Under the pieces are notes generated by a model. That model saw only the letters and a program-made list of their open reading frames with translations. It ran no database searches and was not told the DNA's origin. A DNA stretch of 4,404 nucleotides from a virus (lineage: Duplodnaviria > Heunggongvirae > Uroviricota > Caudoviricetes), in the IMG/VR virus record IMGVR_UViG_2582580934_000001, one strand, 5' to 3'. Below, piece by piece: positions 1-4,404 of this stretch. The first letter of the stretch is position 1; every line of letters starts with the position of its first letter. Position numbers and translations under genes: made by a program.

Positions 1-480
1 AAATCCGAAACTGCAGCGGCATCATCGAAGAACGCGGCGAAAACCTCAGAAACGAATGCAGCTAACAGCGCACAGGCGGCAGCGACCTCACAGACTGCAT
101 CGGCAAACTCCGCGACAGCAGCCAAAAAATCAGAAACCAACGCGAAAAATAGCGAGACAGCCGCAAAGACGAGCGAAACCAACGCAAAGTCCAGCCAGAC
201 GGCAGCGAAGACCAGCGAAACGAATGCCAAAGCCAGTGAAACTGCGGCGAAAAGCAGTCAGGATGCAGCGGCTCAAAGCGAGAGTGCCGCAGCCAGTTCT
301 GCAAGCGCGGCGGCTGCTTCTGCCACTGCATCAGCTAACAGTCAAAAAGCAGCAAAAACCAGTGAAACCAACGCAAAGGTGAGCGAAACAGCGGCTGCGA
401 ACTCAGCGAAAGCATCGGCAGCAAGCCAGACGGCAGCTAAAGCAAGCGAAGATGCAGCCAGAGAGTACGCAAGCCAGGCT
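1..480 (+). repeat. Degenerate in-frame tandem repeats encoding SETNA(K)/SETAA(K) units (tail-fibre shaft repeat region)
   Basis: SETNA codon blocks at 46-60, 130-144, 172-186, 214-228 and 361-375; SETAA blocks at 4-18, 151-165, 235-249 and 382-396. The A/C/G-rich low-complexity DNA yields long spurious ORFs in the other frames (56..382 +, 62..331 -). Confidence 0.75.
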
Positions 481-1800
481 GCGGAGCCGTATAAATATGT
501 CTTACAGCCGCTGCCTGATGTGTGGATACCATTTAACGATTCGCTGGATATGATTACGGGCTTTTCGCCGTCATATAAAAAAATTGTTATTGGTGACGAT
601 GAAATAACGATGCCTGGCGACAAGATTGTTAAGTTTAAACGTGCATCGAAAGCAACCTATATTAACAAATCTGGTGTGCTGACAGAGGCTGCCATTGACG
701 AGCCACGATTTGAACGTGATGGCCTGCTTATTGAGGGGCAAAGAACAAACTACATGCTCAATTCGGAAAGCCCTGCCAGTTGGGGGCGATCGTCAAATAT
801 GGATGTGCCCGAAACAGGGACGGATAATTTTGGTTTTACCTATGGAAAGTTTGTCTGCAACGATTCTCTGATTGGGCAAACCTCAGCCATTAATATGGCA
901 TCAATTGCTGCAACAAAGTCAGTTGATGTCTCAGGCGATAATAAACACGTGACAACCTCATGTCGTTTTAAAACAGAACTGCAGGTAAGGTTGCGTATCC
1001 GGTTTGATAAATATGACGGTAGCGCAACAACTTTTCTTGGTGATGCGTATATTGATACACAAACGCTTGAAATTAATATGACAGGCGGTGCTGCCTCAAG
1101 GATTACAGCGAGAGTCAGAAAGGACGAAGCTACCGGATGGATTTTTGCAGAGGCAACAATTCAGGCAATTGATGGGGAGTTAAAAATAGGCTCTCAGATA
1201 CAGTATTCTCCTAAGCAGAGCGGGGCAACCGTATCTGGTGACTATATTTATCTGGCCACCCCACAAGTAGAAGATGGGCCTTGTGTATCATCTTTTATTA
1301 TATCAGGAGCGACGGCGGCGACCCGCGCAAGCGATATAGTTACAGTTCCAATTAAGAATAATCTTTATAATCTTCCTTTTACGGTTCTTTGTGAGGTACA
1401 TAAGAACTGGTATAAAACGCCAAATGCAGCGCCACGTGTTTTTGATACCGGCGGTCATCAAACCGGAGCGGCTATTATTCTTGGCTTCGGTCGTTCAACA
1501 GATTACGACGGATTTCCTTATTGCGATATTGGAGGAGCTAACAGACGGGTAAACGAAAACGCATCGCTTGAAAAAATGGTTATGGGGATGCGTGTAAAGT
1601 CAGAGCAGTCTACGTGCTCAGTAAGTAACGGGCATATATCCAGCGAAACAAAAACCACATGGTCCTGTATTCAGAACACCGCAATTATCCGTATTGGAGG
1701 CCAGACTACAGCCGGGTTACGTCATTTATTTGGTCATGTCAGGAATTTCAGAATATGGCACAAGGCATTGACTGATGCTCAGGTGGGGGAGTCAATCTAA
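1..1800 (+). CDS. Phage side tail fibre protein, 5'-partial (enters from upstream of window); Ala/Ser/Thr-rich repeat shaft followed by a lower-GC distal region with a LamG/concanavalin-like jelly-roll tip
   Basis: Frame 1 is open from nt 1 to the TAA at 1798-1800; the GTG at 379 in the ORF track is an internal codon of this longer frame. Nt 1-400 translate to KSETAAASSKNAAKTSETNA...KTSETNAKVSETAAAN with nine SET(N/A)A units, typical of Stf-type prophage fibre shafts. The last ~170 aa carry a LamG-like motif series (PFTVLCEVHKNW, RVFDTGG, AIILGFG, IRIGGQ, FGHVRNFRIWHKALTDAQV). Confidence 0.9.
   Translation, partial: KSETAAASSKNAAKTSETNAANSAQAAATSQTASANSATAAKKSETNAKNSETAAKTSETNAKSSQTAAKTSETNAKASETAAKSSQDAAAQSESAAASSASAAAASATASANSQKAAKTSETNAKVSETAAANSAKASAASQTAAKASEDAAREYASQAAEPYKYVLQPLPDVWIPFNDSLDMITGFSPSYKKIVIGDDEITMPGDKIVKFKRASKATYINKSGVLTEAAIDEPRFERDGLLIEGQRTNYMLNSESPASWGRSSNMDVPETGTDNFGFTYGKFVCNDSLIGQTSAINMASIAATKSVDVSGDNKHVTTSCRFKTELQVRLRIRFDKYDGSATTFLGDAYIDTQTLEINMTGGAASRITARVRKDEATGWIFAEATIQAIDGELKIGSQIQYSPKQSGATVSGDYIYLATPQVEDGPCVSSFIISGATAATRASDIVTVPIKNNLYNLPFTVLCEVHKNWYKTPNAAPRVFDTGGHQTGAAIILGFGRSTDYDGFPYCDIGGANRRVNENASLEKMVMGMRVKSEQSTCSVSNGHISSETKTTWSCIQNTAIIRIGGQTTAGLRHLFGHVRNFRIWHKALTDAQVGESI
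1786..1791 (+). promoter_or_regulatory. Shine-Dalgarno-like GGGGAG for the 1800 ORF, embedded in the end of the fibre gene
   Basis: GGGGAG at 1786-1791, 8 nt before the ATG at 1800; the ATG overlaps the fibre stop codon (TAATG), which suggests translational coupling. Confidence 0.5.
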
Positions 1801-2081
1801 TGAAAGATTTAACACTCAAATTTGAAGACAGGGCCGACTTTTCGGCCTTTATGGAGAGTATTGGCTATTATGATGACGAGTCGATGCAGGATGATATTCT
1901 TATCGACGTGATAGGTAACGTGTACAAAGAAACCGGAGAACTGACTGAAGATGGCGAACCGGTATGTGTTAAGGAAGACGGATATTTTGTAAACGTGCGC
2001 ATCATTAATGATTCGCAAATATCGTCATTATTCGATGAATACGTGGTTGCTGTTGAGCATCAACTTCGTGGCTGGATGTGA
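1800..2081 (+). CDS. Hypothetical small acidic protein (93 aa), unknown function, co-transcribed with the fibre genes
   Basis: ATG at 1800 with an upstream SD and 1-nt stop/start overlap with the fibre gene; stop TGA 2079-2081 lies 9 nt before the next gene. Protein is rich in D/E (MKDLTLKFEDRADFSAFMESIGYYDDESMQDD...). No family recognised from memory. Confidence 0.6.
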   Translation: MKDLTLKFEDRADFSAFMESIGYYDDESMQDDILIDVIGNVYKETGELTEDGEPVCVKEDGYFVNVRIINDSQISSLFDEYVVAVEHQLRGWM

Positions 2082-2090: not shown

Positions 2091-3131
2091 ATGGCTACAT
2101 CGACAGTAATTCCTGATGACATCAAAACGCTAAAATCCGACGTTAGCAAATTAAAAAACGATCAAGGAAGCTACGCAACAAAATCTTATGTAGACAATAA
2201 AACAACATGGAATGGTTATTGCAATGTAATCTATGATCAAAAAACATTGCCAACAACTGGAACTATATTCAGCGGTAAGCTGCATTTGTCAAATAAGACT
2301 GGTGAAACGGAAAACGCTTATAGTGACATATATACCAGAAAAAATATTGATGGTACTAAAGATACAATGACGAGGATCGTCACACATAACGGGACAAAAG
2401 GTATCTTTTGGGACTTTAGTGATCTTTACGGAGGAACTTTAATTTTTCCAGGCAGTGATGGTTACCTTAAGATGGGGAACTGTCTCATGTCGTATGGTGT
2501 GCGGGGAAGTAACGCGCTTATTAAGTTTGATAATACAGACTCATTGCAGATCAAATATGCTAATCACGGGTCGACCATGACACTAAACACGCAAGGTACG
2601 GCGTATTCTGGTGTGTCGACGTTATTATGGGGAAATTCCAGCCGTCCTGTTGTTTATGAAGTCGGTGTTGATGGTGGCGCTTATATGTTCTATGCGCAGA
2701 AAAATACCGATAACACCTATATGTTAAGCGTTAATGGTGCATGTCATGCCACCGCATTTAACCAGCATTCCGACCGGGATCTGAAAGACAACATTCAGGT
2801 GATCGATAATGCAACCGACCGCATCCGTAAAATGAACGGCTATACATACACGCTTAAAGAAAACGGTATGCCCTATGCTGGTGTCATTGCACAGGAAGCT
2901 CTGGAAGCAATCCCAGAAGTTGTAGGTTCCGCAATGAAATATCAGGACGGTGCGAGCGGATCGGAAGGTGAAGAAGGTGAACGTTATTACACAGTAGATT
3001 ATTCTGGTGTTACTGGCTTGCTTGTTCAGGTAGCCAGAGAGTCAGACGACAGAATAACAGCACTGGAAGAAGAAAACGCAGAATTAAGACAAAGATTATC
3101 TGTAATTGAGGCGGCGCTTGCGTCTAAATAA
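2091..3131 (+). CDS. Tail fibre / tailspike-like protein (346 aa) with C-terminal intramolecular chaperone auto-processing domain (peptidase S74 type)
   Basis: ATG at 2091 with a good SD; stop TAA 3129-3131. Residues 227-346 read SDRDLKDNIQVID...RIRKMNGYTYTLKENGMPYAGVIAQEALEAIPEVV...YYTVDYSGVTGLLVQVARE...ALEEENAELRQRL, which matches the conserved pattern of the endosialidase / T5 pb1-type chaperone domain (SD-R-LK, G-IAQE-P-VV, DYS-L-V, terminal coiled coil). The N-terminal ~226 aa are AT-rich and Gly/Thr/Asn/Tyr-rich, as expected for a beta-rich receptor-binding part. Confidence 0.88.
   Translation: MATSTVIPDDIKTLKSDVSKLKNDQGSYATKSYVDNKTTWNGYCNVIYDQKTLPTTGTIFSGKLHLSNKTGETENAYSDIYTRKNIDGTKDTMTRIVTHNGTKGIFWDFSDLYGGTLIFPGSDGYLKMGNCLMSYGVRGSNALIKFDNTDSLQIKYANHGSTMTLNTQGTAYSGVSTLLWGNSSRPVVYEVGVDGGAYMFYAQKNTDNTYMLSVNGACHATAFNQHSDRDLKDNIQVIDNATDRIRKMNGYTYTLKENGMPYAGVIAQEALEAIPEVVGSAMKYQDGASGSEGEEGERYYTVDYSGVTGLLVQVARESDDRITALEEENAELRQRLSVIEAALASK
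2769..3128 (+). other. Domain: intramolecular chaperone / autoproteolytic C-terminal domain; predicted cleavage Ser codon at 2769-2771 (Ser227 of the 2091 ORF)
   Basis: HSDRDLKDN motif; the Ser in the SD-R-LK context is the established self-cleavage residue in characterised S74 domains. Assignment is by motif recall, not by search. Confidence 0.7.
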
Positions 3132-3137
3132 TATTAA

Positions 3138-3160
3138 GGGGCCGAGCGCCCCGTTTTATT
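3138..3160 (+). terminator. Rho-independent terminator ending the fibre gene cluster
   Basis: GGGGC (3138-3142), loop CGAGC, GCCCC (3148-3152), followed by GTTTTATT (3153-3160), 7 nt after the stop of the 2091 ORF. Confidence 0.7.
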
Positions 3161-3173
3161 GGGTAGGATGAAA

Positions 3174-3467
3174 ATGGATATAACACCTTTCCTTCATGCG
3201 CTTTGTGCTGTGGCTGCGCAGCTACTGATTGGTCTTTTTACCGGGAACTGGGCTTACGGGGCGATAGCCGGTTGTACGTTCTTCATTGCGCGTGAACACA
3301 CCCAGGCAGAATATCGCTGGATCGAAATGTTCGGGCATGGCAAGCGAATGAATATGCCGTGGTGGGGCGGTTTTGATACACGTGCATGGGATGTGGCAAG
3401 CCTGATGGATTTTGCTGTGCCGGTGGTGGCGTGTCTGCTGGTCTGGCTGTTGGTTAATCGTGGGTGA
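3174..3467 (+). CDS. Hypothetical small membrane protein (~97 aa from ATG 3174; in-frame alternative starts at ATG 3168 and TTG 3159), two predicted hydrophobic helices
   Basis: AGGA at 3165-3168 lies 5 nt before the ATG at 3174; stop TGA 3465-3467. Hydrophobic stretches FLHALCAVAAQLLIGLFTGNWAYGAIAGCTFFIA and ASLMDFAVPVVACLLVWLLV. GC is about 55%, unlike the AT-rich genes upstream. No family recognised. Confidence 0.5.
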   Translation: MDITPFLHALCAVAAQLLIGLFTGNWAYGAIAGCTFFIAREHTQAEYRWIEMFGHGKRMNMPWWGGFDTRAWDVASLMDFAVPVVACLLVWLLVNRG

Positions 3468-3477
3468 AAAAAGGTGA

Positions 3478-3606
3478 GCTGTATATGCAACGGAGGAAGA
3501 AACCCCGTTGCTGGAAGCCTGGAAAAAGTATCGGATGCTGCTGAACCGTGTTGATACATCAACTGCACCTGATATTGAGTGGCCTACGAACCCTGTCAGG
3601 GAGTAA
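3478..3606 (+). pseudogene. tfa: Fossil 3' end of a tail fibre assembly (Tfa) gene; only ~42 C-terminal codons remain and there is no start codon
   Basis: Frame 1 between TGA 3475-3477 and TAA 3604-3606 translates [42 protein letters not shown]. As I recall it, the phage lambda Tfa C-terminus is ...[36 protein letters not shown], a near match. Upstream frames are closed, and the unrelated 3174..3467 ORF sits in another frame. Confidence 0.75.
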
Positions 3607-3669
3607 TCATTGGGATTATGCCGCAGAACGTCTTAAGTAATCATTGGGATTATGCCGCAGAAACGTTGT
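3602..3669. repeat. Tandem direct duplication, 2 x 34 bp (first 27 nt identical), starting inside the tfa stop codon
   Basis: 3602-3635 is AGTAATCATTGGGATTATGCCGCAGAACGTCTTA and 3636-3669 is AGTAATCATTGGGATTATGCCGCAGAAACGTTGT. Confidence 0.85.
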
Positions 3670-3688
3670 ATGCAATAACGTTCTGCGG
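3655..3688. repeat. Inverted repeat / hairpin: 12-bp stem with one bulged A and a 9-nt loop; no following T-tract
   Basis: CCGCAGAAACGTT (3655-3667) pairs with AACGTTCTGCGG (3677-3688). The copy-1 sequence CCGCAGAACGT (3621-3631) is perfectly complementary to 3678-3688, giving an alternative pairing partner. A second 7-bp hairpin lies at 3696-3715 (ATGCACT / AGTGCAT). Confidence 0.6.
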
Positions 3689-3852
3689 TTGGCTGATGCA
3701 CTTTCGAGAGTGCATGTATTGAATTATTTCCAGCTATTATCGATTTTACGTATTTTTTGCATGAGAGAATTTGTACCTCCTCCCAACAACGACCTTCCAT
3801 GACTTTCCGGACTTCTGTGGGCCAGCGGACGATGCTGCCCTCGGATGTTGTG

Positions 3853-4404
3853 CTAATTGGGTGATGACAAATCCTGTGTATGGGTGTTTCCCTTTGTGCG
3901 TGCGTTGATGCTGGTAACGGTGAACGTCATGATGAACACAACCGCGAATAAGACGACAATCGTCGGAGCTGGTGCACTGTCGATAAAAAAGGACAACCAG
4001 ACACCAGTCATTGACACTATTACCGATATGCCAATCGCCAGTAGGAGCGCAATATGAAAGCGTTGTGTCAGGAGTACCGCAATGGCGCCAGGCGCAATGA
4101 GCAGAGAAATGGAGAGAATGATACCTACCGCTTTCAGCGTCGCCACAATGGTCAGAGAGACCATGCACAGCAGCCCATAATGCAGACATCTCGTATGCAA
4201 ACCGCTTACCTGCGCCTGTTGATAATCAAAGCTGAACAGCAAAAAATCCCGCCATTTTACGCTAATAACAAGTGTAACCAGCCCGGCAATAATCACCGTC
4301 TGGATTATATCGCCGATGGTTACCCCGAGCATGTCGCCGAAAAGAATATGGTCAAGATGTACGTCTGGTTTGACTGCAATATACAAGATCAGACCTGCGG
4401 CAAA
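3853..4404 (-). CDS. sitD: ABC-3 family divalent-metal (Mn/Fe) ABC transporter permease, SitD-like; 3' portion only, N-terminus lies beyond the window edge
   Basis: Minus-strand frame is open from nt 4404 down to stop TAG at 3855-3853. Translation ...LFGDMLGVTIGDIIQTVIIAGLVTLVISVKWRDFLLFSFDYQQAQVSGL...AVGIILSISLLIAPGAIAVLLTQRFH...FIDSAPAPTIVVLFAVVFIM aligns with the ZnuB/MntB/SitCD permease pattern (LFGDLLAV...LSxTISPDLAxxxG...xVGxLLxxSLLIxPAAxA...SGPxIVL). The sitD name is contextual (last permease of an operon next to prophage genes) and the symbol is less certain than the family. Confidence 0.8.
   Translation of the reverse strand, partial: FAAGLILYIAVKPDVHLDHILFGDMLGVTIGDIIQTVIIAGLVTLVISVKWRDFLLFSFDYQQAQVSGLHTRCLHYGLLCMVSLTIVATLKAVGIILSISLLIAPGAIAVLLTQRFHIALLLAIGISVIVSMTGVWLSFFIDSAPAPTIVVLFAVVFIMTFTVTSINARTKGNTHTQDLSSPN

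Follow-up and report, generated by a model that had tools for sequence, protein, structure and literature searches.

The closest described relatives of the locus analysed here are the tail fibre assembly (tfa) genes of lambdoid phages and prophages, represented by Tfa of phage lambda and TfaR of the Rac prophage, whose products belong to the Pfam family Caudo_TAP (PF02413). Some fibres manage without such a protein. The S74 domain, found in endosialidases and T5 fibres, folds the fibre trimer and then cleaves itself off; fibres of this kind are known to fold without a separate Tfa. Fragments of tfa occur in DLP12-type prophages, where the order in the "tfaD/tfaX" region (K-12 names) is nohD, a fibre pseudogene, a tfa pseudogene, the ybcY methyltransferase gene and another tfa pseudogene. 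Invertible tail-fibre segments of the Pin/Gin/Cin type are flanked by a 26-bp crossover site, TTnnnnnAAACCnnGGTTTnnnnnAA. Experiments have shown that the stf-tfa region of lambda undergoes homologous exchange with that of the prophages Rac and Qin, and that Rad52-like recombinases are needed for this (De Paepe et al., 2014; PMC3945230).

The window, by which is meant the whole stretch of 4,404 nucleotides that was analysed (IMG/VR record IMGVR_UViG_2582580934_000001), comes from an E. coli prophage of lambdoid (Rac/phage 21-like) type and covers its distal end. In many chromosomes of E. coli, DNA with 99.1-99.9% identity to it is flanked by lom on one side and by sitABCD-uspF-ompN on the other. 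The features of the window are collected in Table 1. With lambda Tfa and TfaR it has in common the last 39 codons of the gene, at a protein identity of 85% (lambda) to about 95% (TfaR and PhiR26_1), as well as the sequence just past the stop codon and the hairpin downstream of it. However, the remnant in the window has lost the start codon with its ribosome-binding context and some 150 codons from the 5' end of the gene, and no fibre gene stands directly before it. The DLP12-type fragments are similar in that a 3' tfa remnant lies behind an S74-type fibre gene and adjoins cargo genes, but their breakpoint is an independent one; the remnant in DLP12 and Ayreon is ~10 codons longer and follows the fibre gene directly, with no membrane ORF between them. 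Like the traces of homologous recombination reported for lambdoid phages (De Paepe et al., 2014), the remnant is a short, highly conserved segment between unrelated DNA, while it differs from them in being a dead gene end and not a shared functional gene, and in being known from sequence alone. Another close relative is phage 21 (OL657228), which has a side tail fibre gene, a small ORF, the phrog_1443 ORF and the same joint, followed by sitD-sitA on the opposite strand. Phage 21 differs from the window in having neither the second fibre gene with an S74 domain nor the DNA corresponding to window positions 3544-3832, and it retains 19 remnant codons.

Table 1. Features of the 4,404-nt window and the evidence on which each was placed.
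Feature	Position	Strand	Evidence
Side tail fibre gene (stf, Stf/LamG-type), 3' two-thirds	ends 1800		ORF list, profile searches
93-aa ORF, phrog_1361, function unknown	1800-2081		ATG at 1800, overlapping the stf stop codon
Second tail-fibre gene, 346 aa, with C-terminal Peptidase_S74 intramolecular chaperone domain	2091..3131	+	Pfam, PHROG
Terminator-like GC hairpin and T-run between S74 fibre gene and membrane ORF	3138..3152	+	consensus scan: GGGGCCGAGCGCCCC then GTTTTATTGG
97-aa small membrane protein, phrog_1443, WP_000355602 (RefSeq), function unknown; left partner of joint	3174..3467	+	ORF list
Breakpoint interval AAAAA, from membrane-ORF stop to first tfa-derived base	3468..3472	.	alignments of joint-bearing and intact-tfa loci
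Degraded tfa-derived stretch GGTGAGCTGTATAT, ~"GELY", about 4-5 codons	3473..3486	+	hand alignment
tfa 3' remnant, last 39 codons and TAA of lambda/TfaR-type tail fibre assembly gene; pseudogene	3487..3606	+	Pfam, tblastn, PGAP
34-nt insertion, repeating 27-nt AGTAATCATTGGGATTATGCCGCAGAA (tfa stop and left hairpin arm), then tail CGTCTTA	3602..3635	.	direct repeat, 34-nt period
Conserved hairpin just downstream of tfa, GCCGCAGAAACGTT...AACGTTCTGCGGT	3654..3690	.	alignment, inverted repeat
sitD 3' part (iron/manganese ABC permease), cargo operon adjoining tail-fibre module	3853..4404	-	Pfam ABC-3, E 1.6e-40; RefSeq annotation

The tfa-derived frame has 42 open codons from 3478 to a TAA at 3604-3606. 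The corresponding 42-aa peptide matches Caudo_TAP with an E-value of 1.9e-16 (60.9 bits, the cut-off being 22.1), and the match is confined to positions 95-130 of the 131 in the profile, that is, to 36 positions at its very end. The peptide also matches PHROG tail-fibre-assembly families. When full-length lambda Tfa, TfaR and PhiR26_1 Tfa were compared with the window by tblastn, a single real match was found, placing amino acids 156-194 at 3487-3603 (E 1.6e-17); residues 1-150 of the three proteins were found in no frame of the window even at a permissive E-value, the next best match having an E of 0.44. In matching RefSeq genomes these bases bear the PGAP label "tail fiber assembly protein, incomplete, missing N-terminus". 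An earlier, sequence-only reading had proposed that a Tfa C-terminus of about 40 codons survives from 11 nt past the stop codon (TGA, 3465-3467) of the membrane ORF, and both this and the peptide match itself were upheld by the database searches. It had further described the frame as closed upstream and without a start. The closure is real, being due to a TGA at 3475-3477, but two start-type codons, TTG at 3508 and ATG at 3535, are found in frame within the remnant. Fusion to, or read-through from, the membrane ORF is ruled out, since the two are in different frames: the membrane ORF ends at 3467, and the frame of tfa is interrupted by the TGA at 3475-3477.

The remnant thus matches the family profile, but it is not full-length, is not a complete ORF with its own start codon, and is preceded directly by an unrelated membrane ORF and not by a client fibre gene. 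To judge from these comparisons, it is a Tfa-family derivative without the status of a functional member. Objects of this sort, and the present one in particular, can already be found in public annotation.

At the DNA level, the intact tfa genes of lambda and PhiR26_1, tfaR and tfaQ-type genes resemble the window from 3486/3487 onwards, and blastn similarity to Ayreon and to a DLP12-like locus starts at 3475. The degraded stretch GGTGAGCTGTATAT corresponds to GTTGAGCTGGA[G/A]ATC in intact tfa and has been put out of frame by a deletion of 1 nt. Compared with the Ayreon/DLP12-type allele, 11 of its 14 bases match with one gap, and only 0.125% of the 14-mers in the window do as well. Left of 3473 the alignments with intact-tfa loci display no similarity to any tfa allele. 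Since tfa homology reaches 3473 and goes no further, the alignments place the join in the A-run at 3468-3472, immediately past the stop codon of the membrane ORF. The breakpoint had been estimated at about 3468-3490, and it is now narrowed to the left edge of that interval. A longer, frameshifted tfa upstream had been named as the observation that would speak against the fossil; all that was found is the trivial extension of 14 nt at 3473-3486.

The membrane ORF that forms the left partner of the joint is a confident member of phrog_1443 (E 2.8e-58), a family without assigned function in PHROG, and it has no match in Pfam or NCBIfam. Its homologue in phage 21 is annotated as a putative membrane protein with two TMDs. 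Because a terminator-like hairpin lies upstream of it, the membrane ORF may be transcribed independently of the late operon; a search of 3050-3900 gave no sigma-70-like promoter. The phrog_1443 ORF is also found directly after the tailspike genes of the P22-like phages JEP4 and vB_EcoP-611R6, just before int (L011 3489-3788; L012 3001-3288), and in 611R6 it is preceded by a 114-nt piece of the 3' end of the S74 fibre gene. More distant relatives are present in Aeromonas and Halomonas phages. The ORF resembles a moron moving together with receptor-binding modules.

Further upstream, the 93-aa ORF occupies the slot where a fibre chaperone would be expected, and in phage 21 its phrog_1361 homologue is the sole gene between stf and the membrane ORF. 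In several otherwise near-identical strains, for instance AMSCJX02 (L001 3712-4940), an IS3-family element separates the 93-aa ORF from the S74 fibre gene; the window is without this element. In the shaft region of stf (window 1-480, compared with L001 1377-1754), repeats rich in Ala, Ser, Lys and Glu ("KSETNA...") align in two registers 189 nt apart, which indicates that strains differ in the copy number of the repeats. A weak Rfam match to isrG (E 0.65) lies at 250-496 on the minus strand.

The string TGA AAAAA GGTGAGCTGTATATGCAACGGAGG, which spans the joint, is identical in six loci or phages: the window, other sit loci, PhiR49_1, the Qin-like prophage of E. coli B (beside pinQ), strain LSC52 and phage 21. 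A seventh type, found in phage ev243 and in a prophage near potB, has the same breakpoint with one A fewer, and a different tfa allele follows it. A probe of 106 nt across the joint detects it in 1739 of 5426 complete E. coli genomes (~32%), in up to four copies each, and the joint-bearing loci in complete genomes number about 2700. Of the IMG/VR contigs, 104 have an exact 30-mer of the joint. In these contigs the DNA located 150-650 nt downstream of the joint falls into at least 12 unrelated clusters, including ybcY-type methyltransferase, pinQ and sitD contexts. On the other side, at least eight clusters are seen upstream of the membrane ORF, in which the ORF follows, among others, a long S74 fibre gene, a short fibre gene or the Stf/LamG fibre gene directly. 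Phage genomes carrying the joint are those of phage 21, PhiR49_1, 2G7b and ev243. The breakpoint is thus nucleotide-identical in unrelated contexts. As the same joint is present in so many genomes, phages and contexts, the founding event most plausibly took place once, long ago, in a phage ancestor. The joint is, on this evidence, best seen as an ordinary inherited mosaic scar with a single old origin that was not made locally, and the membrane ORF and the tfa remnant have been carried about since then as a mobile unit. The founding event was probably an illegitimate join in an ancestral lambdoid phage. The sequence-only reading was right in that a tfa fossil abuts an unrelated membrane-protein gene, but its view that this directly documents the remodelling of the locus is not supported. 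What the joint would record is the history of a mobile cassette and not that of the sit locus.

Behind this one joint, more than 30 variants of the remnant peptide are found, with C-termini typical of different tfa families (PTNPVRE, PALP, LIQP, PEEPDTM and PVIPEV). Such variety is the pattern expected if crossovers with resident intact tfa genes repeatedly re-link the cassette to new downstream DNA. At the chromosomal site of the window (lom-sitD), strain SW07163 has an intact stfR-tfaR adjoining sitD. This allele and that of the window share only lom and the first ~350 nt of stf (88%) on one side, and 3487 through sitD (96-98%) on the other. In strains with an intact stfR-tfaR at lom-sitD, similarity to the window begins exactly at 3487. 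The window-type allele is present at the sit locus in about 131 genomes, within a set of 284 that cover at least 80% of 3440-3700, and both alleles are common in E. coli. The alternative alleles accordingly share only their flanks, and the flanks are mosaic.

The remnant has kept an identity of about 95% with the 3' end of tfa where other lambdoid prophages have the gene intact. This identity and the mosaic patterns suggest that it works as the right-hand homology arm in swaps of fibre cassettes. The sharing of flanks alone with SW07163, together with the exchanges described between lambda, Rac and Qin (PMC3945230), points to a cassette received through the tfa remnant as the right arm. Most likely the sit locus got a ready-made cassette, which would have replaced the stfR-tfaR module by homologous exchange via the remnant and the conserved 5' end of stf. 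Inversion of a tail-fibre segment around the tfa region was also considered and was rejected, as the window contains no match to the Pin/Gin/Cin crossover site with up to three mismatches allowed.

A possible reason why tfa could be lost is found in the second fibre gene. Its product matches phrog_4563 (tail fiber, E 7e-209) and the S74 domain of Pfam (PF13884) at amino acids 227-278 (E 6.3e-14), and it contains the Ser...Lys motif HSDRDLKDNI from amino acid 227, with SDRDLK at 227-232. With both the domain and the Ser/Lys dyad present, autocleavage of this fibre is predicted. A second, independent type of joint, seen in Ayreon and DLP12-like prophages, also has a tfa remnant directly behind an S74-type fibre gene, and neither phage 21 nor the other deposited joint-bearing phage genomes contain an intact tfa in the tail-fibre region. 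The loss of Tfa is probably tolerated because the fibres of the cassette carry their own Peptidase_S74 intramolecular chaperone, so that the Tfa chaperone would no longer be needed in these cassettes. This independence of Tfa concerns the S74 fibre, and the first fibre, of Stf/LamG type, is not covered by the S74 argument.

At the end of the remnant, the window has an insertion of 34 nt that is absent from every close match in the 5426 complete E. coli genomes. Neither the GTDB species representatives nor IMG/VR contain an exact copy of the novel joint it creates. The tail of the insertion, CGTCTTAAG, agrees with the alternative allele (ybcY-type) of the DNA that follows tfa, and its arm, CCGCAGAACGT, pairs perfectly with 3678-3688. 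A simple tandem duplication was rejected, since there are several differences between the two copies in their tails. The insertion looks like a hybrid scar, and it may be an assembly artefact. The hairpin at 3654-3690 is common to lambda, the sit locus with intact tfaR and the ybcY-type loci, and its folding gives z-scores of -2.7 to -3.7. It exists as two alleles (in the window and at L002 5181-5215), GCCGCAGAA(A)CGTT/AACGTTCTGCGGT and GCCGCAGCACGT/ACGTGCTGCGGT, and in the ybcY-type an A-T to C-G change has kept the pairing. The spacer between the remnant and sitD (3654-3804; L004 4725-4872; L008 4900-4999) is 80-83% identical to the lambda b region in the ea47/ea31 interval (lambda about 24161-24308) and to DNA near ynfT/ydfJ in the Qin-like prophage of E. 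coli B. Given the likeness to lambda, the spacer can be regarded as old b-region DNA of a phage. In phage 21, sitABCD comes directly after the same module of tail fibre and membrane ORF (L010 3886-7291), and this shared position indicates that the sit operon is here phage-borne cargo and not a chromosomal neighbour.

It is very likely that 3473-3606 is a non-coding 3' fossil of tfa, descended from a single ancestral joint, carried in a mobile unit, serving as a homology arm and brought to this locus by cassette exchange. That the remnant instead has a function, either as a mini-peptide with the C-terminal motif of Tfa (32 aa from the TTG at 3508 or 23 aa from the ATG at 3535) or as a small RNA related to IS009, is decidedly improbable. 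The frame is indeed open to the native stop codon in most copies, GGAGGA lies 10 nt upstream of the TTG, and the DNA is highly conserved. However, the TTG and the SD-like GAGGAAGAA were already part of the coding sequence of tfa, and the ATG arose by a V>M change that is private to a few copies. A comparison of 79 remnants with 76 intact tfa genes from IMG/VR showed that the remnants carry W12>R, W12>L, W12>stop, L9>R and W32>R as well as frameshifts and truncations, none of which occurs in the 76 intact genes; the conserved Trp is changed to Arg, Leu or a stop in many copies. In phage 21 and some sit loci (L010/L007), 289 bp corresponding to window 3544-3832 are absent, the endpoints lying in an 8-nt direct repeat, GATGCTGC (3534-3541 and 3831-3838), and this deletion both cuts the remnant in phage 21 short and removes the hairpin. 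Counts of synonymous and non-synonymous variant types do not tell the two groups apart (22/28 in remnants and 7/13 in intact genes, Fisher p 0.6), probably because most variation has been imported from functional alleles, and the argument for relaxed constraint rests on a handful of radical changes that are phylogenetically non-independent. As for an RNA, the Rfam model RF02111 (IS009) matches 3465-3563 with an E-value of 5e-13, but its 62.8 bits are below the gathering score of 117, 122 positions of the model are replaced by 22 nt, and the part that aligns is unstructured and tfa-like. The last 70 nt of the model at its 3' side resemble the 3' end of tfa, and the Rfam family appears to overlap a tfa-type gene end; the literature mentioning IS009 gives no function for it. 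Membership in this known RNA family was rejected, as the match is sub-threshold and amounts to tfa-like sequence. We conclude that the remnant is a decaying, non-coding pseudogene.

Selection might act on the hairpin at 3654-3690, for instance as a terminator or stabiliser for convergent transcription, with the remnant as a spacer travelling along. Its retention in lambda, sit loci and ybcY-type loci, its folding and the pairing-preserving change are in favour of this, but there is no T-run on either strand, the terminator scan did not call it, phage 21 and 7-9 IMG/VR contigs have kept the joint without the hairpin, and the copies in the pinQ context diverge before reaching it, so that the proposal is an unlikely one. 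Creation of the joint in situ, in this prophage and at this chromosomal site, would make it a record of local remodelling and would fit with a remnant placed between the fibre cassette and the sit operon at a locus whose other allele has an intact tfaR. This would, however, require the sit locus to be the ancestor of all copies of the joint, including those in phages and beside pinQ, ybcY and potB, which makes it highly improbable and close to refuted. Least credible of all, to the point of being refuted, is that frameshifts and point mutations eroded a complete tfa where it stood, with no truncating recombination. The 1-nt deletion that separates 3473-3486 from the main remnant agrees with such decay, but Tfa residues 1-150 are nowhere in the window, and the DNA upstream is a complete, conserved and unrelated gene.

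The preferred reading, a fossil inherited within a cassette, implies the following course of events. In an ancestral lambdoid phage, an illegitimate join would once have put a fibre cassette ending in the phrog_1443 ORF about 5 nt upstream of tfa codon ~151, removing the first ~150 codons of the gene. With self-chaperoned S74 fibres the Tfa chaperone would have been dispensable, and phage 21 makes a virion without an intact tfa. The joint is now a constant part of a mobile unit, made up of the membrane ORF and the remnant, which live phages carry as well as about one in three complete E. coli genomes. With the remnant as right arm and the conserved 5' end of stf as left arm, the unit could be exchanged by RecA or by phage recombinases of the Red/Rad52 type, and in the prophage of the window, between lom and the phage-borne sitABCD, it would have replaced the stfR-tfaR module in this way. 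The remnant itself presumably encodes nothing and slowly decays.

The tfa remnant by itself is of little import, being a routine pseudogene call in textbook lambdoid mosaicism. What this analysis adds is the breakpoint at nucleotide level, the single origin and very wide distribution of the joint, and the recognition that it concerns the history of a cassette and not of a locus. It is doubtful that the phrog_1443 gene and the tfa 3' remnant together form a portable adaptor, or recombination "landing pad", selected at the level of lineages, or that the pair yields a short peptide or RNA. If the adaptor reading were true, the remnant would persist in a third of E. coli genomes because it offers every fibre cassette that has it a docking site for homologous recombination with any tfa-bearing lambdoid phage. 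For phage engineers, the 3' end of tfa is a natural and tolerated swap point, and the joint provides a clean nucleotide-level marker for tracing the spread of a self-chaperoned side-tail-fibre cassette.
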